Shown: positions 18-18,229 of the stretch, one piece after another
How positions within the stretch are numbered: the first letter of the stretch is position 1
Layout of the letters: every line of letters starts with the position of its first letter
NCBI GenBank assembly: GCA_964291295.2
Contig: OZ219754.1
Span: forward strand, 3,104,001 to 3,168,000
Direction: 5' to 3'
DNA from: an uncultured Candidatus Binatia bacterium
GTDB taxonomy: Bacteria > Desulfobacterota > Binatia > UBA9968 > JAJDTQ01
DNA length: 64,000 nucleotides
Made by a program: the position numbers and the translations under genes
The notes under the pieces: model-generated
Told to the model about the DNA's origin: nothing
The model's input: the letters and a program-made list of their open reading frames with translations, nothing else
Database searches by the model: none

Positions 18-1187
18 GTGGGCACCGAGGCCGCCGATACCGTCGCGGCCCGGGGCCGCGTGCTGGCCGAGGAGCTGCGTTCCCCGGTCGACCTGCCCCA
101 CTTCAACCGGGCGGCCATGGACGGCTACGCCGTCATGGCCCGGGACACCTTCGGGGCCAGCGCCGCGCTGCCGGCCTGCCTCAGGCTTGCCGGGACGGTG
201 GAGATGGGCCAGGAGGTCACCCGCCGCATGGAACCGCACGAGGCCATGCGCATCTCCACCGGCGGCATGCTCCCGCCCGGCGGCGATGCCGTGGTGATGG
301 TGGAGCACACCGAGGAGACCGGCGACGGCATGGTGGAGATCCATCGGAGCGCCCCGCCCTGGCTCAACGTGATCCAGGTGGGAGACGATATCCGCAAGGG
401 CGAACCGGTCTTCCCGCGGGGCCGGCGGCTTCGGGCCCACGACCTCGGCGCGCTGACCGGCATCGGGGTCGCGTCGGTGCCGGTCTACAGAAAACCGCGC
501 GTGACCCTGGTATCCACCGGCGACGAGATCGTCCCGGTGCACCGGGAGCCGCGCCCCGGACAGGTACGCAACATCAACCAGCATTCCCTGGCGGGGCTTG
601 TCGCCGAATGCGGTGCGGTGTTGAACGATCTCGGCGTTGTCGCCGACAATCCGCGGGAACTGCGCGAGGCGCTGATCACGGGCCTGGACTGGGGCGATCT
701 CGTGCTCCTGTCCGGCGGCAGTTCCATGGGAACCCGCGACGTGGCGCTGGAAGTCATCCGCTCGCTGCCCGACGCCAGAATCCGCTTCCACGGCATCTCC
801 ATCAGTCCGGGCAAACCCACCCTTTATGCCGAGGCGGCCGGGAAGCCCGTGCTCGGCCTGCCCGGGTATCCGGTTTCCGCCCTCGTCATCTTCGATCTGT
901 TCGCCGCACCGCTGATACGGACGCTGGGAGGCGAGGGGGCTGCGGCCGCGCCGTTTTTCCGCGGCACCGCAAGGGCCGTCCTCGCCACCAACATCTCTTC
1001 ACGGACCGGCCGGGAGGACTACGTGCGGGTCACCCTGGAACACAGGGACGGAACCCTCCGCGCCGCGCCGTTGCCGGGCAAGTCCGGAGCCATCTTCACC
1101 CTGGTCAAGGCCGACGGCATGGTCCGCATCGACCTTGACCGCGAGGGCCTGGAACAAGGGGAAGAGGTGGAAGTGGCGCTGTTCTGA
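18..1187 (+). CDS. moeA: Molybdopterin molybdotransferase MoeA (probably 5'-truncated by the window edge)
   Basis: Motifs RAAMDGYAV, STGGMLPPGGDAVVMVE, STGDE, SGGSS, PGKP and GLPGYPVS. The frame is open from the window start. Confidence 0.93.
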   Translation: MGTEAADTVAARGRVLAEELRSPVDLPHFNRAAMDGYAVMARDTFGASAALPACLRLAGTVEMGQEVTRRMEPHEAMRISTGGMLPPGGDAVVMVEHTEETGDGMVEIHRSAPPWLNVIQVGDDIRKGEPVFPRGRRLRAHDLGALTGIGVASVPVYRKPRVTLVSTGDEIVPVHREPRPGQVRNINQHSLAGLVAECGAVLNDLGVVADNPRELREALITGLDWGDLVLLSGGSSMGTRDVALEVIRSLPDARIRFHGISISPGKPTLYAEAAGKPVLGLPGYPVSALVIFDLFAAPLIRTLGGEGAAAAPFFRGTARAVLATNISSRTGREDYVRVTLEHRDGTLRAAPLPGKSGAIFTLVKADGMVRIDLDREGLEQGEEVEVALF

Positions 1188-1188
1188 C

Positions 1189-3123
1189 ATGGCACGGAAA
1201 CGCTACCTCAGGAAGACCCCCCTGGAGCGGGCGCGGCAGGCGTTCCTGGACGCCGTTGACGGCAGCCCCCTGGAGGACGAGACGGTGGCTGTCGGCGAGG
1301 CGCTCCACCGGATCACCGCCGAGCCCGTGTTCGCCAGGATCTCGTCGCCCCACTACCACGGGTCGGCCATGGACGGGATCTGCGTAAGCGCGGAGGATAC
1401 CTTCGGTGCCACGGAGTTCTCCCCCCGGCAACTCCGGCCATTGACCGGCGAAGCCCGGGCCGATGGATGCTTCGCCTACCTGGACACCGGCCAGCCGCTG
1501 CCGTCCTGGGCCAACGCGGTGATCATGATCGAGAAGGTGCGGGAGCTCGAAGATGGCACCGTGTCCATCGACGAAGCGGCGGCGCCGTGGCAGAACGTGC
1601 GCCTGGCGGGCGAGGACGTGGTGGCCACCGAGTTGCTGCTGCCGCGGAACCATCGCCTGCGGCCCCATGACATGGGGGCCGTGCTGGCGGCGGGCCATAC
1701 CACCCTTCGCGTCAAGGCGCGTCCCCGGGTGGCCCTCATTCCCACGGGTGACGAGATCACCGCTCCCGGGGCAGCACCCCGCCCGGGACAGGTCATCGAT
1801 TTCAACTCCACCGTGCTGGCCGCCATGGTAGCCGAGTGCGGCGGCGCGGCGCAGACCTTTCCGGCCGTCGCCGACGACCCGGCGCTCCTGAAACGCGCGC
1901 TTGCGGACGCCCTCGAGGACCACCACCTGGCGGCCCTCATCGCCGGATCGTCCGCGGGCGCGCGGGACTTCACCGCGGCGGTGATCGACGACGCGGGCGA
2001 ACTGCTGGCGCACGGCATCGAAGTCATGCCCGGCAAGCCCGCGGTCCTGGGCGTGGTCGGCGGCAAGCCAGTCATGGGCATCCCCGGCTACCCCGTGTCC
2101 GCCATCGTCATCGCCCGCGAACTCCTCCAGCCGGCACTGCGGCGAATGCTGGGCACGGACCCCGGCGCCCCGGCGGAGGTCCGTGCCGTGGCGCCGCGAA
2201 AGATCCCCTCGCGACTGGGCCTGGAGGAGTTCGTCCGGGTCACGCTGGGAAAGGTCGATGACCGGCTCATGGCCGTTCCGCTGGCGCGCGGCGCGGGGGT
2301 CATCCACACCATGGTGCGGGCCGACGGATTCCTGCGCATTCCGGGGAGAGTGGAGGGGATCAACGCCGGCGAGGAGATCACCGTCGAACTGCTGCGGTCG
2401 CCCGGGGAGATCGCGCATACGGTGCTCTGCACCGGCAGCCACGACCTCTCCATCAGCGTGCTGGAAGACCAGCTCAAGTGCCGGGACCCGCGGTTCAGGA
2501 TCGCCACGGCCAACGTCGGCAGCCTCGGCGGACTGCATTCCATCCGGCGCGCCGAGACGCACATGGCCGGCACCCACCTGCTGGACCCCGCCACCGGCGC
2601 GTACAACATTCCGGACCTCCGGCGCGTGCTCCCGGATGTGCCGGTGGTGCTCGTGCACTGCGTCAGACGCCGCCAGGGCCTGCTGGTGCCCCGGGGCAAT
2701 CCCCTGGGGCTGTCGAGCATCGCCGACCTGGGGAGCCGGGCGCTGCGGTTCGTCAACCGGCAGCCCGGCTCGGGCACCCGCGTGCTGCTGGACTACAATC
2801 TCGCGCAACTCGGCATCGAAACCACCGCGGTCAGGGGATACGAACACGAGGCGTTCACCCACATGGCGGTGGCGGTGGCCGTGGCCAGCGGTCTGGCGGA
2901 CACCGGCCTGGGGATTCTTTCCGCCGCCAATGCGCTGGAACTGGACTTCATTCCGGTGGGCGACGAGCAGTACGACCTGGTGCTGCGGCGGTCGTTCCAC
3001 GACTCGCCGGCAGGCGCCGCGCTGCTGGCGGTCCTCCGCTCCGCCGGATTCCGGCAGGCGATGGAATCCCTCGGCGGCTACGACACCGGCACCAGCGGCG
3101 ACATCCTGTACGAGCAGGGATAG
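1189..3123 (+). CDS. moeA: MoeA fused to a C-terminal periplasmic-binding-protein-like domain
   Basis: ATG 1 nt after the upstream stop. MoeA motifs SAMDG, PTGDE, PGKP, GIPGYPVS, then a PBP-like domain (GSHD, VGSLGG, NRQPGSGTR). Confidence 0.9.
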   Translation: MARKRYLRKTPLERARQAFLDAVDGSPLEDETVAVGEALHRITAEPVFARISSPHYHGSAMDGICVSAEDTFGATEFSPRQLRPLTGEARADGCFAYLDTGQPLPSWANAVIMIEKVRELEDGTVSIDEAAAPWQNVRLAGEDVVATELLLPRNHRLRPHDMGAVLAAGHTTLRVKARPRVALIPTGDEITAPGAAPRPGQVIDFNSTVLAAMVAECGGAAQTFPAVADDPALLKRALADALEDHHLAALIAGSSAGARDFTAAVIDDAGELLAHGIEVMPGKPAVLGVVGGKPVMGIPGYPVSAIVIARELLQPALRRMLGTDPGAPAEVRAVAPRKIPSRLGLEEFVRVTLGKVDDRLMAVPLARGAGVIHTMVRADGFLRIPGRVEGINAGEEITVELLRSPGEIAHTVLCTGSHDLSISVLEDQLKCRDPRFRIATANVGSLGGLHSIRRAETHMAGTHLLDPATGAYNIPDLRRVLPDVPVVLVHCVRRRQGLLVPRGNPLGLSSIADLGSRALRFVNRQPGSGTRVLLDYNLAQLGIETTAVRGYEHEAFTHMAVAVAVASGLADTGLGILSAANALELDFIPVGDEQYDLVLRRSFHDSPAGAALLAVLRSAGFRQAMESLGGYDTGTSGDILYEQG

Positions 3124-3223
3124 GAACAGGCGGTCCATCCACCGGCGCGGCGGCGCCTCCCGGTGGGCGCATCGGGCGGGGCGGGCATCGGGCGGGCTGG
3201 ATACGGAAGCGGGTCCGGGGTGC

Positions 3224-3310
3224 TGGTGCCGGGAGCCGGACTTGAACCGGCACAGGCCAAGGCCCGCGGGATTTTAAGTCCCGTGTGTCTACCCATTCCA
3301 CCATCCCGGC
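3224..3310 (-). tRNA. tRNA-Leu(UAA)
   Basis: Reverse complement GCCGGGATGGTGGAATGGGTAGACACACGGGAC-TTAAAA-TCCCGCGGGCCTTGGCCTGTGCCGGTTCAAGTCCGGCTCCCGGCACCA: anticodon TAA, long variable arm, encoded CCA. Confidence 0.96.
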
Positions 3311-3408
3311 GCAACACGTCTCCATAACTTCCGTCCATCCCTTCGTCAACCGGAGACTCCCGCGGCCGCGCACACGACCCGTTCCCTTGCGTGGCACCCG
3401 GCACTTCG

Positions 3409-3446
3409 CTACCGTGGTCCGTGAGATCTACCGTGGTCCGTGAGAT
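3409..3446. repeat. Exact 19-nt tandem duplication (CTACCGTGGTCCGTGAGAT x2) upstream of the grdB-like gene
   Basis: Copies at 3409-3427 and 3428-3446. Confidence 0.95.
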
Positions 3447-3475
3447 CGGGTCAGCCAATGGCAGGGAGGCCAGGC

Positions 3476-4804
3476 ATGAAGCGCGTGGCACACGTCGTGA
3501 ACCAGTTCTTTGCCGGCATCGGCGGGGAGGAAAAGGCGGATGCCGTTCCGGGGATCCTCGATACCCTGGCGGGACCGTCGCGCGGCCTGCAAGGGCGGCT
3601 GCAGGGCGAGGCGACGGTGGCTCCCACCATCCACTTCGGCGACAACCACTTCCACGAACGGGCCGCGGAGGCACGGGCGGCCCTCCTGCGCGCGGTCGCG
3701 GCTGCGGAGCCGGACATCGTCGTGCTGGGTCCGGCGTTCAATGCCGGGCGCTACGGCCTCGCCTGCGTCGAGATCGGGCACCGGGTGACCACCGAGTTGG
3801 AGCGCGTGTGCGTAACCGCCATGCACGAGGACAATCCGGCGGTGGAAACGTACCGGCGATACCATAACCCCGGGCTGTTCCTCCTGCCCACAACGGAGAC
3901 GGCCGCGGGCATGGGCAAGGCCCTCGACGATCTCGGCCGTTTCATTGCCAGGCGGCTGCGCGGCGAGCCCCCGGGCACCGCCGGGGACGAGGGCTATCTG
4001 CCGCGGGGAATCCGGACCCAGGTGCGGAGTGGCCGGACCGGCGCCGACCGCGCCCTGGCCATGCTGCTCGACAAGCTGGAGGGAAAGCCCTTCGCCACCG
4101 AAATACCCGTCCGGAACTGGGACCGGGTGGCGCCCGCGGCCGCGGTCAAACGCCTCGACAAGGCCAGGGTCGCGCTGGTCACCACCAGCGGGGTGGTGCC
4201 GTGGGGCAATCCGGACGGCTTCAAGACCTTCCGCAACACGTTCTGGCGCAAGTATCCGGTGGCGGAGTTGAAGACCATGGAGCCGGGCATGTGGGAGGCG
4301 GTGCACGGCGGCTACAACGTCGCCGACATGAACACCAACCCACTCTACGGCGTTCCGCTGGACGCGCTGCGGGAGCTCCGGCACGAGGGCCGATACGAGG
4401 ATCTCTACCCCGCCTACTACGTCATACCCGGCAACCAGGGCTCGCCCTCGGCCATGCAGCGGGTGGGACGGGAGATCGCCGCGGAACTCAAGGCCAACAG
4501 CGTGGACGCGGCGCTGCTGGTCAGCACGTGAGGGACCTGCAGTCGCAGCGGAGCTGTGATCAGCAAGGAGTTGGACCGTGCCGGAGTTCCCGTGTCGATG
4601 ATCAGTGCCATGTTCCCTCTGGCGGAGCAGGTGGGCGCCAACCGCATCGTCAAGGGCGTCCGGATTCCCCATCCCTGCGGCGACCCGGGCCTGCCGTCGG
4701 AGGTCGACGGAAAACTGCGCAAGGCCATCGTCGAGACCGCTCTCAAGGCCCTTGAGGAAGACGTCGACGGGAGCACCGTGTTCACCCCGGACGCAGCGTC
4801 ATGA
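3476..4804 (+). CDS. grdB: Glycine/sarcosine/betaine reductase selenoprotein B family (GrdB/GrdH-like); Sec at in-frame TGA 4529-4531
   Basis: N-terminus MKRVAHVVNQFFAGIGGEEKA, motifs GPAFNAGRYG and ALVTTSGVVP. ORFs 3440-4531 and 4556-4804 share a frame and join as VST-U-GTCSRSGA...GANRIV...IPHPCGDP, 442 aa. RBS GGAGG upstream. Confidence 0.92.
4536..4568 (+). promoter_or_regulatory. Putative bacterial SECIS hairpin
   Basis: TCGCAGC (4543-4549) pairs with GCTGTGA (4553-4559) around a GGA loop 18 nt after the UGA; lower stem CCTGC/GCAAGG. Confidence 0.75.
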
Positions 4805-6126
4805 GCAGCGGCCGGCACGGCACGCCGCTGGAGTTGGCGGAATTTCCCGTGAACGAGCTTCGGTCGGGCGGCGCGTTGCGATACCGCGGCCGGACCCTGG
4901 AGGTGGACGAGGCGGCGTTGGCGGAAACCGCTTCACGGGATCCCGGAGTCCTGTCCGCCAGGCTCGACATCATCCGGCCTGGCGAGCGGGTACGGGTCAC
5001 CGGGATTCGCGACATCGTGGAGCCCAGGGTCAAGGTGGCCGGCGGCGGTCAGGTGTTTCCCGGGATCACCAATCCGGTGGCCGCCGTGGGGGCCGGCCGC
5101 ACTCATCGGTTGTCCGGCATGACCCTCACCACCACCGCGGCGTACGAGGGCACCATCCGCACCGGCACCACGGCCCCGCGCAGCGCCATCCTCGACATGT
5201 GGGGACCGGGGTCCGAGCTTACCGGATTCAGCCGCCTCCCGAGCCTGGTCCTCACCCTCGCGCTCTCCCCGGACCTGATCGAGGCCGAGGCGCACCAGGC
5301 GATACAGGCCGCCGAGTACCGGGTGGCCCAGCGGCTGGCGGAAACCACGGTGGAGGCCAGGCCCGCGTCCATCGAGACCCACGGAGCGGCACACGGAAAC
5401 CCGGACCTGCCCAGGGCCGTGCTCATCGTCGGCTGCATCACCGAATCGGAGCACCGGCCGTCAGGCCTGGGATATTACGGGCTGCCGGTGCGTGAGTCGC
5501 TGTCCACGGTGGCCCACCCCAACGAGTTGCTGGACGGCGCGGTCACCGGCAATACCCTGAAGAGCATCGCCTACTACCCCACCACCTGGGACTGGCAGAA
5601 CCAGCCCCTGGCCCTGAGCTTGTCCCGGGAGCACGGCCGCCGGCTCGATTTCGCCGGCGTCATCCTGCTGCGTATCGGCTTCGGAAGGTTCCAGGAGAAG
5701 GAGGTGGCCGCGCACAACGCGGCCCAGGTGGCTGGCGCCCTTGGAGCGAAGGCCGCCCTGGTCACCTGGATCGGTTCCGGCAATGCCTTTATGGAAGTGA
5801 TGCTGGCGGTGCGCGCCTGCGAGCGGAAAGGCATCCGGACCGTGCTGGTTACCTACGAGTATGGCGGCAGGGACGGCGTGGACTCACCGCTGCTTTTCTA
5901 CGACGCCTGCGCCGACGCGGTGGTGAGCACCGGCAGCCGCGACCGCACCCTGGAACTGCCTCCGGCGGACCGGGTGGTGGGGGGGTATGAACGGCTTCAG
6001 GTTCTCAACTACCCCGGCGCACCGGTGGTGCCGGCCGCCGGCGCCATCCACCTCGACGCGGTCGACGCCATCATCGGCGGCACCGATCTCTGGGGCGGCC
6101 GGGACTGGACCTGCCGGGCGCACTGA
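4801..6126 (+). CDS. Glycine/sarcosine/betaine reductase component B proprotein (GrdE/GrdI-like)
   Basis: ATGA overlap with grdB. Motifs DIVEPRVKV, VGAGRTHRL, ILDMWGPG, HPNELLDGAV, ACERKGIRTV and ADAVVSTG. Confidence 0.85.
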   Translation: MSSGRHGTPLELAEFPVNELRSGGALRYRGRTLEVDEAALAETASRDPGVLSARLDIIRPGERVRVTGIRDIVEPRVKVAGGGQVFPGITNPVAAVGAGRTHRLSGMTLTTTAAYEGTIRTGTTAPRSAILDMWGPGSELTGFSRLPSLVLTLALSPDLIEAEAHQAIQAAEYRVAQRLAETTVEARPASIETHGAAHGNPDLPRAVLIVGCITESEHRPSGLGYYGLPVRESLSTVAHPNELLDGAVTGNTLKSIAYYPTTWDWQNQPLALSLSREHGRRLDFAGVILLRIGFGRFQEKEVAAHNAAQVAGALGAKAALVTWIGSGNAFMEVMLAVRACERKGIRTVLVTYEYGGRDGVDSPLLFYDACADAVVSTGSRDRTLELPPADRVVGGYERLQVLNYPGAPVVPAAGAIHLDAVDAIIGGTDLWGGRDWTCRAH

Positions 6127-6223
6127 GCATGCGCACCGGGCTCGCAGACTCCGACAGAGTCATCATCGATATCAGGGAGCACTGACGCGAAACCGCTCCG
6201 GACAACGCTTCCAGGCACACGGC

Positions 6224-6472
6224 ATGGCAACACGACGACGGCTACGCAGAAGAACGCGACGGAAGAGGAGCCGCCGCGCGTGGCTCCTGGTTCCGGCGAT
6301 CATCCTGGCAGTGATGCTGGGGTGGCTGTACCGGATCGAGATCGTGAACCTCGCCACCTTCCGGTTCAGCGGGATCGACTTCAGCCGGCAGCCCGCGGGC
6401 ACTTCCGAGGGCGTTGCCCCGATCACGGAGAAGGAGCGCCGGGAACTGGAGGGGATCCTCAAGAACCGCTGA
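6224..6472 (+). CDS. Small hypothetical single-pass membrane protein with Arg-rich N-terminus
   Basis: MATRRRLRRRTRRKRSRR followed by hydrophobic AWLLVPAIILAVMLGWLY; GC-type codon usage. Confidence 0.6.
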   Translation: MATRRRLRRRTRRKRSRRAWLLVPAIILAVMLGWLYRIEIVNLATFRFSGIDFSRQPAGTSEGVAPITEKERRELEGILKNR

Positions 6473-6501
6473 TCCGGGAGGCTCCGCCGCCACCACTGGC
6501 G

Positions 6502-7581
6502 CTACAGCCCACCGGGCAGACTGTAGAAACGCTGGGCGTTGCGTGACAACACCGCGGTCTTGTCCTCTTCGGTGAGGTCTTCGCTCTCGATGACCTCGCC
6601 CAGTTCTTCCTTGCAGAACTCGTTGTTCACCTCGTGGGGAAAGTCCGAGGAGTAGACCCAAGGCTTGTTCCCCACGGTCTTGATGGCGTGGGCCAGATCC
6701 GGTTCGTGGCCCTCGCAGCCGACGAAAATCCGACCGCCCTCGATGTGCCGCCGGCAGTACTGGCTGACGCTCTCGCCCTTCTCGAGTTGCAGGAACTCGG
6801 CCCGGGGGTCGTGCTGGATGTGCGTTTCGTAGGAGCGGTCGAAGCGCTCGAGACACATGAGCAGCCAGGCGACGCCCCCCTCCAGGAAACCGATGCGCAG
6901 GTTGGGATACTTGTCGAAAATGCCGTTGAAGACGATGCCGCCGAAGGAGATCATCTGTCCGAACGGATGGCCGAGGGCGTGCACCGGGGCGTACGGATGG
7001 AGGTCATCCATGCCCAGGTTCTCGTGCGCGCCGCCGTGGATGCCCAGGCAGCAACCCAGCCGGTCGGCCTCCTGGTAGATGGGCCAGTAGTACTTGTGGC
7101 CGAGATGCAACTGGATGCCGGTGGAGGGCAGCATGGCGCCGCACATCCCCAGCTCCTCCACCGCCCGGCGCAGCTCCTTCACCGCCTCGTCCGGCTCCTG
7201 AAGCGGAATCAGAGCCACCGCCTGGAACCTCGGACTCTTGCTGACGTAGTTCTCGGCAATCCAGTCATTGTAAGCGCGGGCCAGGTCGATGGCCCAGTCC
7301 TGGCTCACCACCTTGCCGTAGGACAGGCCCACGGTGGGATAGAGGACCGTCCGGTCGATGCCGACGTCCTCCAGAAACTCCACCCAGCCGTCGAAGCCCA
7401 CCTGCTGGAATGAACCCTCCGGAAGCTTGTGCGCGTTGGCCGAATGCAGGTGGTCCAGCGGCGGGAACGGGTTGGACCAGCGCATCTGTTCCCGCACCGC
7501 CTTGGGAAAGCGGCTCGTGATGGCCGCCATGTCCTCCACGACGTGACCGTCGCCGTCAATGATCTGATACTTGTTTGCCAT
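6502..7581 (-). CDS. Amidohydrolase family protein (amidohydro_2)
   Basis: Motifs IIDGDGH, ARAYNDW, IHGG, FLEGGVAW, SSDFPH and NAQRFY. Confidence 0.88.
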   Translation of the reverse strand: MANKYQIIDGDGHVVEDMAAITSRFPKAVREQMRWSNPFPPLDHLHSANAHKLPEGSFQQVGFDGWVEFLEDVGIDRTVLYPTVGLSYGKVVSQDWAIDLARAYNDWIAENYVSKSPRFQAVALIPLQEPDEAVKELRRAVEELGMCGAMLPSTGIQLHLGHKYYWPIYQEADRLGCCLGIHGGAHENLGMDDLHPYAPVHALGHPFGQMISFGGIVFNGIFDKYPNLRIGFLEGGVAWLLMCLERFDRSYETHIQHDPRAEFLQLEKGESVSQYCRRHIEGGRIFVGCEGHEPDLAHAIKTVGNKPWVYSSDFPHEVNNEFCKEELGEVIESEDLTEEDKTAVLSRNAQRFYSLPGGL

Positions 7582-7776
7582 GGGTAACCTCCGGGTAGGC
7601 CCGTGTCGTGGTGTCCGCAGATCCGGCGCCGCTGGCGGGCAGGCCCTTTCGACGGACCCGCCCGCCAGCGGGCTCCGGGCATTGAGCGGGTCTTAGCCGG
7701 CTCCGCGGGAATTGTCAAGAATGCGCCGAGGCCGGCCAGTGGCCCGCCCGAGGCGACTCGTGCTAAGGACCATGCC

Positions 7777-9078
7777 ATGAGCAGCACCCGACGAACCGGC
7801 GACTGGTCGCCGCCCGACATCCTCTCCCGCCCCGAGGTGGTCAAACTGTCCGAAGAGACCCTGGCCCTACCCGACATGGCGATCGGGAACCGCGAGGACA
7901 TCTTCCGCATCCAGGCGCTGGACCTGGACTGGGACATCGGTACCATGACCTGCGAACCCGAGGACGCGGGCCGCGTGCCGAAAGTTGCGGACGGAAGGCG
8001 CGCGGGCATCTTCCTGCTGCACGGCGGCACATCGGACTACAAGTCCCTGGAGCCGGTGGCCCGGATGATGGCCGCAAAATACGGCTTCAAGGTGACGCTG
8101 ATGACCTTTCCCGGGCGCCTGTACCTGCTGGACCCCTCCCGGGATTGGCCCGGCGACACCCTCGAACCCGACGGCACCGGCCGGACGCCGCTGTGGATCC
8201 GGGAGACCCGCATCACGCGCGACCAGTACCAGGTGGCCCGGGACGAGTCCCGGCGCGCCAGCTACGGCACCGTCCTGTCGCTGGCGGCCCGCGAGGGAAG
8301 CGAATTCTACCACCGCATGGCCGCCTGGCCCGCGGCCTTCGAGGAAGCGATGCGGGAGGCCTGCCGCCGGGAGTTTCCCGAGGCCGGGTATTCCCTGTAC
8401 GTCCACGGCCACTCCACCGGCGGACCCTTCGCCATGATCGCCGCGCAGCGGGTGGCCAATGTGGCCGGCGTCCTGGGGTACGGCTCGTCGACCTTCGGCT
8501 ACATCTACACCGCGGTCACCGGGGATCGGTGGAACTTGCCCTTCAACCACCTGCGGCTGCGGACTTGGCGCGACACCGCCCGCTACCTCCACGAAGGGCT
8601 CAAGGACAAGGGCTACGGCCTCCCCATGCTGATGGAACTTGCCATGGAGAAGTGGGAAGTGGAGAAGAGGCGCGCCAACTTCAAGGCCGAGGACTTCGTC
8701 CACAAGAACGGCGCCGGCGCGCTGGAACAGGCCGCGCGCGTCACCGCCCGCCGCCTTGGGTTGGGAGCGGCCGCCGAGCGGGAATTGGTGGGGCGCTATC
8801 TCGGATATCTGCGGGAGCTGGCCGGCCCCGGCGTCAAGCCGGTGCCGCCCGTGCTTTCGCTTCACGGTGTGGACGACGACACCGTCACCCTGCAGCGGTG
8901 TGGCGACTCCCGGCCGTTGTACGCCGCCATGAAGCCGGCGCCGAAGGTCGCCTGCGTCTCCCTGGGCGCCGGCGTCCATACCTGGGACCGCACCTGCGAG
9001 GATCTCCCGCGCGGCATCCTGCCGCCGGTGTGCCGGCTCTGGCACGACGCCATCGCGGGTGGCTACTTCGCGCCCTGA
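7777..9078 (+). CDS. Hypothetical alpha/beta-hydrolase-fold protein
   Basis: LLHGG, nucleophile elbow GHSTGG, HGVDD and a C-terminal GVH. Confidence 0.65.
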   Translation: MSSTRRTGDWSPPDILSRPEVVKLSEETLALPDMAIGNREDIFRIQALDLDWDIGTMTCEPEDAGRVPKVADGRRAGIFLLHGGTSDYKSLEPVARMMAAKYGFKVTLMTFPGRLYLLDPSRDWPGDTLEPDGTGRTPLWIRETRITRDQYQVARDESRRASYGTVLSLAAREGSEFYHRMAAWPAAFEEAMREACRREFPEAGYSLYVHGHSTGGPFAMIAAQRVANVAGVLGYGSSTFGYIYTAVTGDRWNLPFNHLRLRTWRDTARYLHEGLKDKGYGLPMLMELAMEKWEVEKRRANFKAEDFVHKNGAGALEQAARVTARRLGLGAAAERELVGRYLGYLRELAGPGVKPVPPVLSLHGVDDDTVTLQRCGDSRPLYAAMKPAPKVACVSLGAGVHTWDRTCEDLPRGILPPVCRLWHDAIAGGYFAP

Positions 9079-9158: not shown

Positions 9159-10055
9159 ATGATCGACGCACGAGCGCCCGCGGGATACAAGCCGCCGTGG
9201 CTCAAGGTCCGGCTGCCTTCCGGTGCCCGCTACAACCGCCTCAAGGAGAGCTTCCGGACCTTGAAGCTGCACACCGTGTGCGAAGAGGCCCGCTGCCCCA
9301 ACCTCGCCGAGTGCTGGCAGTCCGGCACCGCCACCCTCATGATCCTGGGGGACGTCTGCACCCGCGGGTGCCGTTTCTGCGCGGTCAGGACCGCCAGAGC
9401 CGGTACCCCGGTGGACGACGACGAGCCTCGCCGCGTGGCCGAGGCTCTGGCGCGCATGGATCTCCGCTACGTGGTTCTCACCTCCGTGGACCGCGACGAC
9501 CTGGCGGACGGCGGCGCCGGCATCTTCGCCGGGACCATCCAGGAGACCCGAAGGCGCTGTCCCGACCTGCTCATCGAGGCGCTGATCCCGGATTTCCGCG
9601 GCGACGTGCGCGCGCTCCGAAAAGTGGTGGACGCCGCCCCGCACGTCATCGGCCAGAACATCGAGACGGTGGAGCGCCTCACCCGCCCGGTTCGGGACGC
9701 GCGCTGCGGCTACGGGCAGACCCTGGACGTGCTGGCGAACGTCAAGACCCTGAACCCCCGCATCCATACCAAGAGCGCGATCCTGCTGGGCCTCGGAGAA
9801 ACGGCCGCGGAGGTGGCGGCCACCATGCGCGACCTGCGCGCCCGGAGCGTGGACATCCTTACCCTGGGCCAGTATCTACAACCCACCCCGAAACACCTGC
9901 CGGTTGCCGAGTTCCTGCATCCGGACCGCTTTCGCGAGTACGAGGAACAGGGCCGGAAGCTCGGCTTTCGTTACGTCGCCGCCGGTCCCATGGTGCGCAG
10001 TTCCTACCGCGCCGCGGAGTTCTTCGTGGAAAAGATGTGCGCCCCGCAGGGCTGA
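9159..10055 (+). CDS. lipA: Lipoyl synthase
   Basis: [19 protein letters not shown], radical-SAM motif CTRGCRFC and C-terminal VRSSY. Confidence 0.97.
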
Positions 10056-10134
10056 GACCGGCTGGCGCGCCGCCAGGGGCGCGGCGGCCAGCACGCCCTC
10101 ACGTGCGCGCGGCGCCTTCCGGCTCGCGGCAAGA

Positions 10135-11199
10135 TCAGCCGAGCCGGTCTCCGGCCAGCTTCGCGCCCTCCACGCGCGCGCGTATCTTGGCGAAGGCCGT
10201 GGCCCGGGCGGTGGAGGTGTCGTCGCCGAACGGCGCGAAGCCGCAGTCGTCGGTGCACCCGAGCCCGTCGGTGCCCAGTCGGGAGGCCGCTTCCAGGATC
10301 CGCTCGCAGACCTCCCGCGCGCTCTCGACCCGGGGATCGATGGGATCGGTGACGCCGATGAACACCCTCTGACCCGCACGCCGTTCCCGCGCGATGATGT
10401 CGAGAACGCGCGGCCGGTCCGCTTCACTGGCCATCTGGATGAAGAACCGGCCGGCCTTTATGGCGAACAGGTCGGGAAGCAGTTCGGCGTAATCGACGTC
10501 CGCGGAGTGGGTGGAGTCCTGGTCGCCCCCGGGACACGTGTGGACGCCGATGCGGCTGCGCTCCGCATCGGAGAACCGCCCGAGCACCGTGTTGTTGAGC
10601 TCCACGAAGTTTCGCAGCAGCCCGCGCGAGGGATCCAGCTTGCAGCACAGCCGCCCTTCGGTGAAATCCATCTGCACGCTGTCCGCGCCGGCCTCGAAGG
10701 CTGACCGGATGTCCTTCTCGCATTCGTTCACCAAGTCGGCGACAAAGACGTCACGCGGATAACCGTCGATGCCGTCCCGGGGATAGATCAGGCTGATGGC
10801 GGACGGCGCGATGACCGCCTGCTTCACCGGCCGGCGGGCATGCCTCCGAGCCGCGGCCACGTACGCTCCCGAATAGGTGGTGTACCGGAACGGTCCGGCG
10901 GTCAGGCGCGGCAACTGCCGCGTGTGGCCGTCTTCGAAAGGAATCAGGACTCCGTCCGGTGCGAGGGTGTCGAGACCCGCCAGCGGGTAGGTCGCGAAGC
11001 TCGGCTTCGACTGCTCTCCGTCGGTGACCACCGGCGAACCCGTCTCCTCCATGGCCGCCACGGTCTCCGCCACCGCCCGGTCCATGGCCTGGCTCAGATC
11101 GGCATCGTCAAGCCGGCCGGCACCGTGCGCGCGCATGGCCTCGACGAGCCAGCCGGGGCGCGGGATGCTGCCGATGGGTTCGGTCGGGATAGTCATCAT
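10135..11199 (-). CDS. Cobalamin-independent methionine synthase II family (MetE C-terminal-like) protein
   Basis: IGSIPRP, VTDGEQ, Zn ligands HTC and DDCGF; single-barrel length of 354 aa. Confidence 0.85.
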   Translation of the reverse strand: MMTIPTEPIGSIPRPGWLVEAMRAHGAGRLDDADLSQAMDRAVAETVAAMEETGSPVVTDGEQSKPSFATYPLAGLDTLAPDGVLIPFEDGHTRQLPRLTAGPFRYTTYSGAYVAAARRHARRPVKQAVIAPSAISLIYPRDGIDGYPRDVFVADLVNECEKDIRSAFEAGADSVQMDFTEGRLCCKLDPSRGLLRNFVELNNTVLGRFSDAERSRIGVHTCPGGDQDSTHSADVDYAELLPDLFAIKAGRFFIQMASEADRPRVLDIIARERRAGQRVFIGVTDPIDPRVESAREVCERILEAASRLGTDGLGCTDDCGFAPFGDDTSTARATAFAKIRARVEGAKLAGDRLG

Positions 11200-11434
11200 T
11201 TCCTCCCCGGATCGAATGGTGCGCCGACTCTACTGGATGTTCGCCGTGACGACAACCATGCAGCCGTCCCTGGAGCGGGTTTCCAGGCGCCAGGCCGCAG
11301 TCCCCGGCAAGACGGATCCGGCGCGCCTCGACAGCCCTGCAACCTGTCCGGCAGGCCGCCCCGACCCTTGCGTGATGGACGGCTGCCTGGGGTCGATCCA
11401 CATGACTCGGCAGACAGTTTGCTCTCATGAGGAG

Positions 11435-14373: not shown

Positions 14374-14471
14374 ACTGACGCCTCGTCCGGGCGGAGAGCC
14401 CGCCACACCTTGACGGGCGCTTCCGGAGCGGCTAATGAACCTCTTCCACGGGCGGCCTTTCCGGCCGCCCG

Positions 14472-14639
14472 GTTCTCGGGTCCCTCACGGGATAAAAGGG
14501 AAACCGGTTGAAATCCGGTGCGGTCCCGCCACTGTGAATGGGAAGGCTTGCCTGAAGCCACTGTTCCCCACCGGGAATGGGAAGGCGGCAAGCCGGTCGA
14601 TGACGACCGGCCCATGAGCCAGGAGACCTGCCCGAGAAT
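14472..14639 (+). ncRNA. Cobalamin riboswitch 1
   Basis: P1 TTCTCGGG/CCCGAGAA; AAAAGGGAAACCGGTTGAAATCCGGTGCGGTCCCGCCACTGT; GCCACTG...GGGAAGG; B12 box GAGCCAGGAGACCTGCC. Confidence 0.95.
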
Positions 14640-14759
14640 CCACCGCAACCATGCTCTCCGAGGAGAGAGGAGGTGTCGCCATCCGCACTTGTACCCTGAA
14701 CGCTCCCGTTCCCGCCCGGTCGAAGCGGCACTGACCTGCGGCCGCCTGCAGCGAACGGG

Positions 14760-15503
14760 ATGCGCCGGCTTCTCTACTGCCTGTTGGGCTCGACGCTGAT
14801 CCACGGTCTGCTCCTGTGGGTACCTTTTCCCATGCGCGCCGGCGGCGAGGACGAGAGCGCTCTTCGGCCGTTGCGGATACGACTGGTGACGGCACCCCGC
14901 GCCGAGCCGGACCGCCGCGTTTCCCGACAGTCCCGACAATCCCGGCAGCACCGTGGAGTGCGGACGGCGGTACCTGCCAAGGCGCGGAAGTCCCCGCCGG
15001 CAAGGAAGCGGCCGGAAACGCCGGCCCGCCCCCGGATGGCGGTCGTGCCGGCACCACCGGAACCTGCCGCCACCACACCGGTTCGAGTCCGCCCGCTGGT
15101 GCAGGAGCCGGGGAAACGGCAGCCAGCCGGCCGTGACGGGAGCGTTGCGGAGAGAACGCATCGCGCCCGCGCCATCGCCCCCGACAAGCCCGCGGACCGG
15201 GGCATCGAGGCCAGCGCCGGTTTCAATCCGGTCCGCTATGCACGGACCGTGAAGCCCCGCTACCCCGCCACGGCACGACGGGCCGGATGGCAGGGCACCA
15301 CCGTTCTCAAGGTACGGGTGGACAGCCAGGGTGCGCCGGACCGGGTCACGGTGGATCGGACTTCCGGCTTCGACATCCTTGATGCGGCGGCCGTCAAGGC
15401 CATGGGACGCTGGAGATTTCATCCGGCGCGCCGCGGCAACCACCGCGTGGCCGCTTGGGTCCGGATCCCGGTGACATTCAAACTGAAGGAGGACAAGCGC
15501 TAG
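14760..15503 (+). CDS. tonB: Energy transducer TonB
   Basis: N-terminal TM with S-x3-H (STLIHG), Pro/Arg-rich linker and TonB_C domain (PRYPATARRAGWQG...SGFDILDAAA...WRFHPA). Confidence 0.88.
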   Translation: MRRLLYCLLGSTLIHGLLLWVPFPMRAGGEDESALRPLRIRLVTAPRAEPDRRVSRQSRQSRQHRGVRTAVPAKARKSPPARKRPETPARPRMAVVPAPPEPAATTPVRVRPLVQEPGKRQPAGRDGSVAERTHRARAIAPDKPADRGIEASAGFNPVRYARTVKPRYPATARRAGWQGTTVLKVRVDSQGAPDRVTVDRTSGFDILDAAAVKAMGRWRFHPARRGNHRVAAWVRIPVTFKLKEDKR

Positions 15504-15538
15504 CAAACCGATTGCGAGTCACCAGCAAACGACAAACT

Positions 15539-15711
15539 GAAGGCGGACGCCAGGGAAAGGGGTGAGAATCCCCTGCTGCCCCGCAACTGTAACGGCGACG
15601 AAAACCGCAACACGAGCCACTGCCCCTGCGACGGGCGGGAAGGCGCGGCGAGTAGGCCGGCAGCATCCAAGGACTGCCAGAAAGCCCAAGCCAGGAGACC
15701 TGTCCGTCTTC
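15539..15711 (+). ncRNA. Cobalamin riboswitch 2
   Basis: P1 GAAGGCGGAC/GTCCGTCTTC; AGGGAAAGGGGTGAGAATCCCCTGCTGCCCCGCAACTGTAA; GCCACTG...GGGAAGG; B12 box AAGCCAGGAGACCTG. Confidence 0.93.
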
Positions 15712-15747
15712 CACAGCAATCCGCTTTCGCGGGAAAGGAAGATTGCC

Positions 15748-17682
15748 ATGAAGTTTCTGTTCCCGGGTGTTGTCACCCTTCTCGTCCTTGTCGTCCTTCT
15801 GACCGTTCAACCCGGCGCCGCGCAGTCCCTGGGAGACGACCCGCGGAAGACTCCGGCTGCCGCCAACGACATCCGGCAGCTTCCCGAAATCGTGGTGTCG
15901 GCCAGCCGCGTACCGCTGGAAGCCAAGGCCGTGGGCAGCGCGGTCACGGTCATCACCGCGGAGGAGATCGAGCGCAGGCAGATCCGCGTCGTATCCGACC
16001 TGTTGCGCCAGGTCCCGGGGTTGGCGGTACACCGTTCCGGCCCCGTCGGCACCCTCACCGCCGTGCGAATCCGCGGCGCCGAAAGCCGCCATACCCTGGT
16101 CGTCATCGACGGCATGAAGGCCAACGACCCGAGCAACACGGGAGCCACGTTCAACTTCGCGAACCTGCTCGCCGCGAACATCGAACGCGTCGAGATCCTG
16201 CGCGGACCGCAGAGCGGCCTCTACGGCAGCGACGCCATCGGCGGCGTGATCAACATCATCACGAAACGGGGGCGAGGGCCGTCGAAGGCGAGTCTGGCCG
16301 TCGAGGGCGGTTCATTCCGAACCGGCAATGTCTCCGCCGGTCTGAGCGGCGGCGGCGACCGCTACCACTACTCCGTGAACGCCGCCGGCTTCAGAACAGC
16401 CGGGATATCCATCGCCGCGGGTGGCGAGAAGGACGGCTACCGGAATCAGACCTACGGTGCCAGACTCGGGTTCGAACCACTCGGACGGCTGGAAATGGAG
16501 TTGTCCGGCCGTTACGTCAAGGACGACGTGGAAACGGACAACGTACCGACGGACAGCAGCGACGAGACCGCCTCGGACCACGCCATGGGCCGCATCCGAC
16601 TCGCCTACAGCCTTTTCGATGGCACATGGAAGCATGCGCTGGAGGCCGCCATGGACCGCACCCGCCGCACCTTCGTTAGCCAGCAGTCGGGAACGTTCCG
16701 GTACGACGGCAGGAAGTCGCGCTTCGGCTACGAGACGAGCCTCTCCTTCGAGACTTCCGCCGTGACCGAGGCCGCGCACACCATCGTCCTGGCCACCGAG
16801 CGGGGGAAGGACACCCGGACATCCGGCGGAACCAGCGACAACGCCACCCACCACGGCTACTCCGGCGAATACCAGCTGGGACTCGCAGACCGGCTCTTTC
16901 TTTCCGGCGGCCTTCGCTACGACGACAACCAACGCTTCAAGGACACGGCCACATTCCGGTTGACGGCGGCCTATGTGTTCGACGGTCTCAGAACGCGCCT
17001 GCACGGCAGCTACGGCACGGGGATCAAGAACCCCACCCTGTCGCAACTGTTCCAGCAGTTCGGCCGCGTCGGACCGAATCCCGACGTCGAGCCGGAGGAA
17101 AGCAGGGGATGGGACATCGGTATCGAGCAGGAACTGGCCGGCGGGCGGCTTGCCGTGGACGCGACCTATTTCGACAACCGTCTCGAGAATCTGATCCATT
17201 GGAACGACGCCGGCACTCCCTGGTCCGTGAACCCCGACGACGACTTCTACGACAACCTGGACGGGACATCGCGAATCCGCGGGCTGGAGCTTGCCCTGAG
17301 GGGCGAACCGGCGGCGGGGTTCAGTCTGTCCGCTCACTACACCTACACCGACGCAAAGGATCCGGACGGCAAACGGCTGCCGCGGCGCGCCCGGCACGTG
17401 GCGAGCGTGAACCTCGGTTACCAATGGCTCGACAGCAGGGCCAACGTCGACCTCGGCGTCGACTACAACGGCGAGCAACCGAACCGGATAACCGATCCCG
17501 TGATGCTGCACGACTTCACCCTGGTCCGCCTCGCGGCCGCCTACAGGATCACCCGGCAAGTCGAACTCTTCGGACGGATCGAAAATCTCCTGAACGCGGA
17601 CTACGAGGAAGTACCCGACTACCAGACCACGGGCATCGGCTTCTTCGCCGGCATCCGGGGCACGCTGGAACTGCTGCCGTGA
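15748..17682 (+). CDS. btuB: TonB-dependent vitamin B12 receptor
   Basis: Signal peptide, TonB box EIVVSASR, plug motifs IRGAESRHTLVVIDG and IERVEILRGPQSGLYGSDAIGGVINIIT; directly behind a B12 riboswitch. Confidence 0.9.
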   Translation: MKFLFPGVVTLLVLVVLLTVQPGAAQSLGDDPRKTPAAANDIRQLPEIVVSASRVPLEAKAVGSAVTVITAEEIERRQIRVVSDLLRQVPGLAVHRSGPVGTLTAVRIRGAESRHTLVVIDGMKANDPSNTGATFNFANLLAANIERVEILRGPQSGLYGSDAIGGVINIITKRGRGPSKASLAVEGGSFRTGNVSAGLSGGGDRYHYSVNAAGFRTAGISIAAGGEKDGYRNQTYGARLGFEPLGRLEMELSGRYVKDDVETDNVPTDSSDETASDHAMGRIRLAYSLFDGTWKHALEAAMDRTRRTFVSQQSGTFRYDGRKSRFGYETSLSFETSAVTEAAHTIVLATERGKDTRTSGGTSDNATHHGYSGEYQLGLADRLFLSGGLRYDDNQRFKDTATFRLTAAYVFDGLRTRLHGSYGTGIKNPTLSQLFQQFGRVGPNPDVEPEESRGWDIGIEQELAGGRLAVDATYFDNRLENLIHWNDAGTPWSVNPDDDFYDNLDGTSRIRGLELALRGEPAAGFSLSAHYTYTDAKDPDGKRLPRRARHVASVNLGYQWLDSRANVDLGVDYNGEQPNRITDPVMLHDFTLVRLAAAYRITRQVELFGRIENLLNADYEEVPDYQTTGIGFFAGIRGTLELLP

Positions 17683-18134: not shown

Positions 18135-18229
18135 GGAGAAGGAAGGTGCCCGGTGGCGCCGCTGGTCTTCAAAACCAGTCTGAGGGCCGTAAGGTTCTCG
18201 GAGGGTTCGACTCCCTCCCTTCTCCGCCA
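18135..18229 (+). tRNA. selC: tRNA-Sec(UCA)
   Basis: 95 nt; 8-bp acceptor stem GGAGAAGG/CCTTCTCC plus GCCA; anticodon arm CTGGT-CT-TCA-AA-ACCAG; long variable arm; T arm GAGGG-TTCGACT-CCCTC. Confidence 0.96.

Follow-up and report, generated by a model that had tools for sequence, protein, structure and literature searches.

Does a GrdE homologue that lacks the pyruvoyl-forming Cys still form a carbonyl cofactor, or does it work as an uncleaved subunit? The question is raised by a locus on contig OZ219754.1 of an uncultured Candidatus Binatia bacterium, in a 64,000-nucleotide stretch (the window; G+C ~68%). PF09338 comprises the glycine, sarcosine and betaine reductase component B subunits, and a gene of this family directly follows one for a GrdB-like selenoprotein here. 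An earlier note on this DNA had seen Thr in place of the pyruvoyl Cys, and had offered either an uncleaved subunit acting on an onium substrate or a Thr-derived alpha-ketobutyryl cofactor. The features at issue are these:

3476..4804, forward strand: GrdB-like selenoprotein B gene; 442 codons plus stop; selenocysteine at residue 352 (Sec352) in the motif S-T-U-G-T-C-S-R-S-G
4801..6126, forward strand: GrdE-like (PF09338) subunit gene; 441 aa; its ATG overlaps the TGA stop of the upstream partner (ATGA)
5554..5559, forward strand: codons of Thr252 (ACC, 5554-5556) and Leu253 (CTG, 5557-5559), from the alignments and the translation

Our analysis indicates that the GrdE-like gene probably encodes an unprocessed alpha-type subunit for a protein B module with a substrate specificity of its own, belonging to a Grd-type system of a Binatia-like bacterium. 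The protein matched Pfam PF09338 (Gly_reductase) at 277.8 bits (cut-off 22.2) over its full length, residues 10-435 corresponding to profile positions 3-422 of 426.

Residues 245-255 read D-G-A-V-T-G-N-T-L-K-S, with Thr252 encoded by ACC, just as the earlier note had it. The GrdE motif that it gave, approximately DGAIVSGN-C-VSAC, was also seen, as DGAI(L/V)SGN-C-VSAC, in the Cys-type relatives P0201, P0213 and P0252. The register between the two strings was off by one. We sampled the family as 150 representatives of 50%-identity clusters, aligned the 119 that were full-length (query included) with MAFFT, and compared a profile of the window clade (A1, 25 sequences) with one of Cys-type proteins (A2, 13 sequences) using hhalign (probability 100, 415 columns, 29% identity). 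Both alignments were ungapped from Pro240 to Asn267 of the GrdE-like protein, and both placed neither Cys nor Ser but Leu253 opposite the Cys of Cys-type GrdE (residue 242 in P0214, a 428-aa protein labelled glycine reductase in the sources). Thr252 lay opposite Asn241, and Ala257 opposite the second Cys of the SGNCVSAC motif. The spacing from the DGA anchor to the TT(W/Y) anchor was equal in the GrdE-like and Cys-type proteins; therefore, no indel justifies the one-residue shift made by eye. Thus, the absence of a Cys or Ser at the site held, and the assignment of Thr252 to that site did not.

We infer that the Cys242-type residue of the SGNC motif is the processing Cys, because it stands in this motif and bears the same number as in Clostridioides difficile GrdE, whose pyruvoyl-bearing peptide is aa 242-266 (PMC9908766, excerpt). 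GrdE and GrdG proproteins have a Cys at this self-cleavage position (SGN-C), where the GrdE-like protein has Leu253. Because of this Leu, no pyruvoyl group can form at the cleavage column, and the product most likely remains a single 441-aa chain. Pyruvoyl groups derive from nucleophilic Cys or Ser side chains, and Leu has no such chain.

Conservation of the site was assessed in relatives. A scan of one genome per species gave 309; we retained the 80 best, in 74 loci, and a tblastn search of these loci and the window with the GrdE-like protein yielded 92 copies covering the site. Position 252 was Thr in 68 copies, Ala in 21, and Val, Pro or Met in one each, while position 253 was Thr in 46, Ile in 22, Leu in 14, Met in seven, and Arg, Ala or Val in one each. 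Cys or Ser was found at 252 or 253 in 0/92 copies. Among the 18 orthologues (76-84% identical to the GrdE-like protein) and the window itself, position 252 was Thr in 17, Val in locus L007 and Pro in locus L015, and position 253 was Leu in 12 and Met in seven. Ala-Ile, with no hydroxyl at either position, occurred in L030, in one L042 copy and in P0106. The cleavage column was Thr in half of the more distant copies, and Thr was absent there in the window protein and its orthologues. The exchange of Thr with Ile, Leu, Met and Val at column 253 suggests a structural position, which argues against a catalytic one.

These counts bear directly on self-cleavage at Thr252 to give a Thr-derived alpha-ketobutyryl cofactor. 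The frequency of Thr in the clade, at both 252 and 253, speaks for such a cofactor, and so does the position of the site in the AlphaFold2 model (137-sequence alignment; predicted local distance difference test score, pLDDT, 93.9; predicted template modelling score, pTM, 0.93), where residues 248-250 form a strand and 251-253, holding Thr252 and Leu253, form the loop directly after it. However, Thr252 lies off the cleavage column, opposite Asn and not Cys, and its place is taken by Ala in 21/92 copies and by Val or Pro in two orthologues; the cleavage column itself is Leu or Met throughout the orthologues, and the Ala-Ile copies offer no hydroxyl at all. Even Cys-to-Ser abolished processing in the D-proline reductase proprotein PrdA (PMC11229817, excerpt). 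We regard a Thr-derived cofactor as extremely improbable. The uncleaved-subunit option, by contrast, was strengthened by Leu at the cleavage column, Ala257 at the second Cys and the lack of Cys or Ser in the clade copies.

Structural searches returned no solved homologue: a PDB sequence search with the GrdE-like protein gave a chance match only (E 0.39), and Foldseek of its model against PDB gave 0 matches at E <= 0.001 (best TM-score ~0.2). The model of the Cys-type P0214 was poor (pLDDT 58.3, below 50 at residues 202-285) and allowed no usable loop comparison.

Nor was the missing Cys unusual for the family, contrary to the premise of the earlier note. Among the 119 representatives, the Cys column held Tyr in 48, Phe in 14, a gap in nine, Leu in seven, and His, Asn, Cys and Ser in five each, besides other residues. 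Cys was thus present in just 5/119, one of which (P0254) carries it in another motif; the SGNC(V)(S/A) motif occurred in 4/119. A FastTree tree of 137 sequences placed the window protein in a 49-row branch (support 99) with Cys at this column in 0/49 rows, and the four SGNC sequences within a six-row clade of the other, 88-row branch. When 115 representatives were scanned with NCBIfam, only P0201, P0214 and P0252 gave an E-value better than 1e-120 on any model, and their GrdG model scores (631, 484 and 475 bits, respectively) were all under the cut-off of 780. The source labels of the representatives were as general as 'glycine reductase' or 'glycine/sarcosine/betaine reductase component B subunit'. 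As far as these alignments tell, the missing Cys is the normal state of the large uncharacterised branch to which the GrdE-like protein belongs, and Thr252 is not special.

The partner gene provides the second line of evidence, with three features:

4529..4531, forward strand: in-frame TGA read as selenocysteine; the frame is open and conserved past the TGA
4538..4565, forward strand: conserved hairpin, possible selenocysteine insertion sequence (SECIS) element, 9 nt after the TGA (RNAalifold)
18135..18229, forward strand: tRNA-Sec, anticodon TCA (ARAGORN; Rfam RF01852 75.2 bits, gathering threshold 47)

The part before the TGA scored 351.6 bits on Pfam GRDB, and the read-through product scored 415.4 on NCBIfam TIGR01918, the selenoprotein B subfamily (cut-off 65.45). 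A GGGAGG lies upstream of its ATG at 3476. Each of the orthologous loci (18/18) kept this 442-codon frame with a single in-frame TGA (72-85% identical to the window's), and likewise the ATGA overlap between the two genes. Across all loci and the window, TGA occupied this site in 47/47 GrdB-like copies, in the motif [S/A]TUG[T/S]C[S/T]RSG, and the partner's predicted product accordingly keeps a Sec-x-x-Cys centre. The codons after Sec (AGT CGC AGC GG; 4532-4560) were near-invariant at synonymous positions in 16 diverged genes, which suggests a constraint on the RNA, as a SECIS element would impose. RNAalifold of the post-TGA stretch from 16 sequences gave 10 pairs, mostly invariant, including at synonymous positions, and no compensatory changes; a single sequence of this stretch, folded alone, did no better than shuffled versions (z -0.49). 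The hairpin is consistent with a SECIS element and is offered as a candidate.

A distance of 13.6 kb separates the selenoprotein gene from the tRNA-Sec gene downstream, which has genes for a TonB-dependent receptor and a TctA transporter on either side. Neither selA nor selB nor selD families were detected among the window open reading frames (ORFs) scanned with Pfam, a non-exhaustive set made up of the long ORFs and others of at least 60 aa with a coding-like G+C content at third codon positions (GC3).

Conservation of this kind sits poorly with the pair being the relic of a Grd module, in decay or without catalytic function, which we judge very unlikely. It is true that the window lacks the flanking genes found beside the pair in most orthologous loci, and that the orthologue in L028 looks frameshifted. 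However, both ORFs are intact, the orthologues retain the identity given above, the Sec codon and the ATGA overlap persist in every orthologous locus, GC3 (0.86) is typical for coding sequence in the window, and the structure model is confident. In L028 the orthologous gene matched as two overlapping pieces (10001-11351), suggesting a frameshift or an assembly error; its database protein, P0058, has only 361 aa.

Unprocessed GrdE homologues are already in print, namely GrdI and FarE (PMC10838667, excerpt), and a Thr in place of Cys is no surprise. GrdI, the alpha subunit of betaine reductase protein B with GrdH as its partner, resembles the GrdE-like protein in belonging to PF09338, in having a Sec-containing B partner and in lacking the processing Cys; it is described as a non-proprotein (PMC10838667, excerpt). 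We compared it by description only, and the description, unprocessed and without Cys, also fits the GrdE-like protein. Unlike GrdI, the window genes do not stand beside grdA, grdC, grdD or a betaine transporter gene, and their host appears to be a Binatia-like Gram-negative (a TonB-dependent receptor gene is present in the window) rather than an amino-acid-fermenting Firmicute.

FarE, from the fluoroacetate reductase B module of Cloacibacillus porcorum MFA1, is likewise an unprocessed GrdE homologue without the two conserved cysteines and, like GrdI, no proprotein. Its partner FarB also has an altered Cys pattern near Sec, and their module feeds shared A and C proteins, several protein B modules being able to supply one reductase system (PMC10838667, excerpt). 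FarB is said there to lack the CxxC cysteines, whereas the window partner keeps U-x-x-C and has only the last Cys replaced by Ser. The GrdE and GrdG proproteins have in common with the window protein their family, length (~430 aa) and the anchors HPNE-x-x-DGA and T-(W/Y)-x-x-Q-N, but differ at the cleavage Cys (Leu253) and the second Cys (Ala257), and lie on a different deep branch of the tree. PrdA is a distant homologue, similarity to its model being limited to residues 236-352, and it too works with a Sec subunit; PrdA is the larger protein, and PrdH assists its cleavage at Cys421 (PMC11229817, excerpt), whereas the window protein has no processing residue. On these comparisons, the GrdE-like protein is an uncharacterised new member among the unprocessed GrdE homologues.

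Several findings weigh against reading the pair as a protein B module with a non-processed subunit. The GrdE-like protein reached none of the curated equivalog cut-offs, scoring 180.3 on GrdG (NCBIfam NF040793, cut-off 780), 87.5 on FarE (NF053623, cut-off 675) and 23.1 on PrdA (TIGR04480, cut-off 700). The partner also fell short of the curated models for GrdB (385.5, cut-off 602.2), GrdF (391.1, cut-off 800) and GrdH (NF040795; 375.5, cut-off 775). Its motif was U-x-x-C-x-x-S in 47/47 copies and not the full U-x-x-C-x-x-C, the form named for GrdB (PMC13188914, excerpt). Self-cleavage at a site other than the SGN-C column may be compatible with the sequence. Neither the 64-kb window (scanned ORFs with Pfam; tblastn) nor the 10 kb to either side of each of the 18 orthologous pairs (tblastn) showed a grdA, grdC, grdD or thioredoxin gene, the search for GrdA and GrdD covering the window and the retained loci. 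The neighbours of the orthologous pairs were not Stickland-type genes either: most loci had Rieske oxygenase, cupin, solute-binding protein and ABC permease genes upstream, and VOC/glyoxalase, quinone oxidoreductase, TctC and TctA genes downstream. Lastly, the placement of a GrdC gene on the same contig is putative.

The shortfall on the curated models also counts against the idea that the pair is an ordinary B module for glycine or sarcosine, with its carbonyl group at another place such as the GrdB-like subunit: neither subunit reached the GrdB/GrdF or GrdG cut-offs, and the high scorers on the GrdG model (P0201, P0214 and P0252) all retain the Cys. For such a module, the Ser of the S-T-U-G motif, which is present here, has been suggested as a candidate carbonyl site, formylglycine on GrdB having been speculated to be the missing carbonyl (PMC10838667, excerpt). 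A radical S-adenosylmethionine (SAM) gene of the anaerobic sulfatase maturase type (TIGR03942, 476.5, cut-off 349.45) does lie a few kb upstream of some clade GrdE-like genes, in L041, L053, L058, L060 (340-1743, minus strand), L062, L063 and L064, but no maturase gene was present among the scanned window ORFs. An ordinary module with a displaced carbonyl therefore seems improbable to us.

The missing linkage to proteins A and C raises a stronger challenge, that the pair forms a self-contained two-subunit reductase like PrdA/PrdB, in which Sec attacks the substrate, the selenoether is resolved by Cys355 and the enzyme returns to its reduced state through a dithiol or thioredoxin, with no A or C protein and no acetyl phosphate. 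Neither grdA nor grdC is linked to the pair in the window or in the orthologous loci (18/18), the partner keeps only U-x-x-C, and the neighbours are genes of the catabolic oxygenase type and transporter genes, all of which would suit a reductase of this kind. Against it, more distant relatives of the same clade (GrdE-like protein 57-59% identical) have the pair followed directly by genes for GrdC (NF040746, 499.5, cut-off 450) and selenoprotein A (NF040748, 189.6, cut-off 130; motif C-F-V-U). Both genes were found in nine loci (L029, L032, L034, L035, L037, L038, L040, L047 and L074); L059, at a contig end, had GrdC without GrdA, and L042 had GrdA without GrdC. A search with a Binatia GrdC retrieved the homologue P0490 (476.9, cut-off 450), apparently encoded on the same contig as the window but outside it, and GrdC homologues appear to be present in the genomes of the ortholog-bearing loci L003, L007, L009 and L011. 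Furthermore, the partner is a full-length 442-aa protein of the GrdB type that scored 89.6 on the PrdB model (cut-off 300), and the GrdE-like protein fared no better on that for PrdA. We consider a self-contained reductase unlikely, though it is the main rival.

For the protein B module that we favour, the mechanism would follow the established Grd scheme (Andreesen 2004, as summarised in PMC9908766, PMC10838667 and PMC13188914, excerpts). The GrdB-like selenoprotein and the GrdE-like subunit would be coupled translationally through the ATGA overlap. By analogy with GrdH/GrdI and FarB/FarE, the substrate would be an alpha-substituted acetate whose leaving group can depart without a Schiff base. 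The alpha-carbon would be attacked by Sec352 of the partner, the resulting Se-carboxymethyl group would be handed to selenoprotein A, and protein C, presumably encoded elsewhere on the chromosome, would yield acetyl phosphate.

What that substrate might be can be proposed only tentatively. The pair is perhaps a new Binatia protein B for an alpha-substituted acetate beyond glycine, sarcosine, betaine and fluoroacetate, such as a sulfonium or other onium compound, within genomes that may hold several modules (the Sec-linked pair, an orphan GrdE-like protein and, in relatives, tandem trios per GrdB). The onium substrate put forward in the earlier note draws on analogy with GrdI (betaine) and FarE (fluoroacetate), and our results neither support nor exclude it. 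A Rieske oxygenase gene beside orthologous pairs was considered as glycine betaine monooxygenase (GbcA) and rejected (35 bits, cut-off 670).

Variant arrangements were common in the relatives. A second GrdE-like paralogue, ~60% identical and with no GrdB-like gene beside it, occurred on the same Binatia chromosomes (L018-L027, L030, L033, L036, L043, L045, L048 and L068; match at ~10001-11296). Its residues at 252-253 were Thr-Ile, or Ala-Ile in L030, and it was flanked by genes for a short-chain dehydrogenase/reductase, amidohydrolase_2, TctC, class II aldolase, TauD and molybdopterin oxidoreductase. Two or three tandem GrdE-like genes surrounded a single GrdB-like gene in L029, L035, L038 and L040 (also in L044, L055 and L057); in the first four, the arrays were followed by grdC and grdA, with solute-binding-protein genes interspersed. 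The best related loci came from metagenome-assembled genomes (MAGs) under the title Candidatus Binatia, and some from MAGs that bear the name Thermodesulfobacteriota, Syntrophobacterales or Deltaproteobacteria.

Compared with L001-L017, the window held the most compact version of the locus, with none of the flanking genes named above in the gaps on either side of the pair (3124-3475 and 6127-6501). Its other features were as follows:

18-1187 and 1135-3123, upstream of the pair: two tandem MoeA-type molybdopterin molybdotransferase genes
3224-3310, reverse strand: tRNA-Leu(UAA) gene, flanking the pair and the only gene in the upstream gap
6226-6472, forward strand: small ORF of ~82 aa in the gap after the GrdE-like gene; Arg-rich N-terminus, then a hydrophobic stretch; no Pfam family
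6502-7581, reverse strand: amidohydrolase_2 gene, downstream of the pair
7603-9078, forward strand: gene for a 491-aa protein that matched neither Pfam nor NCBIfam families; in 12 loci it is conserved beside lipoyl synthase
14461-14649 and 15528-15721: two cobalamin riboswitches (109 and 80 bits, respectively)

The second MoeA-type gene (1135-3123) is fused to a PBP-like domain (PRK14498, 743, cut-off 534), and many orthologous loci show the tandem genes in synteny with the pair. The riboswitches precede a gene for a TonB C-terminal domain (14700-15503) and a TonB-dependent B12-receptor-like gene (15562-17682).

Supplements aside, our literature searches brought up no account of Grd-type enzymes from Binatia or Binatota, and the one paper retrieved recorded grdH as not detected (PMC9999580). 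Most of the diversity of PF09338 is uncharacterised, just 3/115 scanned representatives lying near any curated Grd model, and a conserved Sec-dependent protein B module is widespread in Binatia and related MAGs. Binatia have been described as aerobic methane or methyl oxidisers. The identity of the substrate would add reductive C-X cleavage to a lineage known mainly for its oxidative metabolism.

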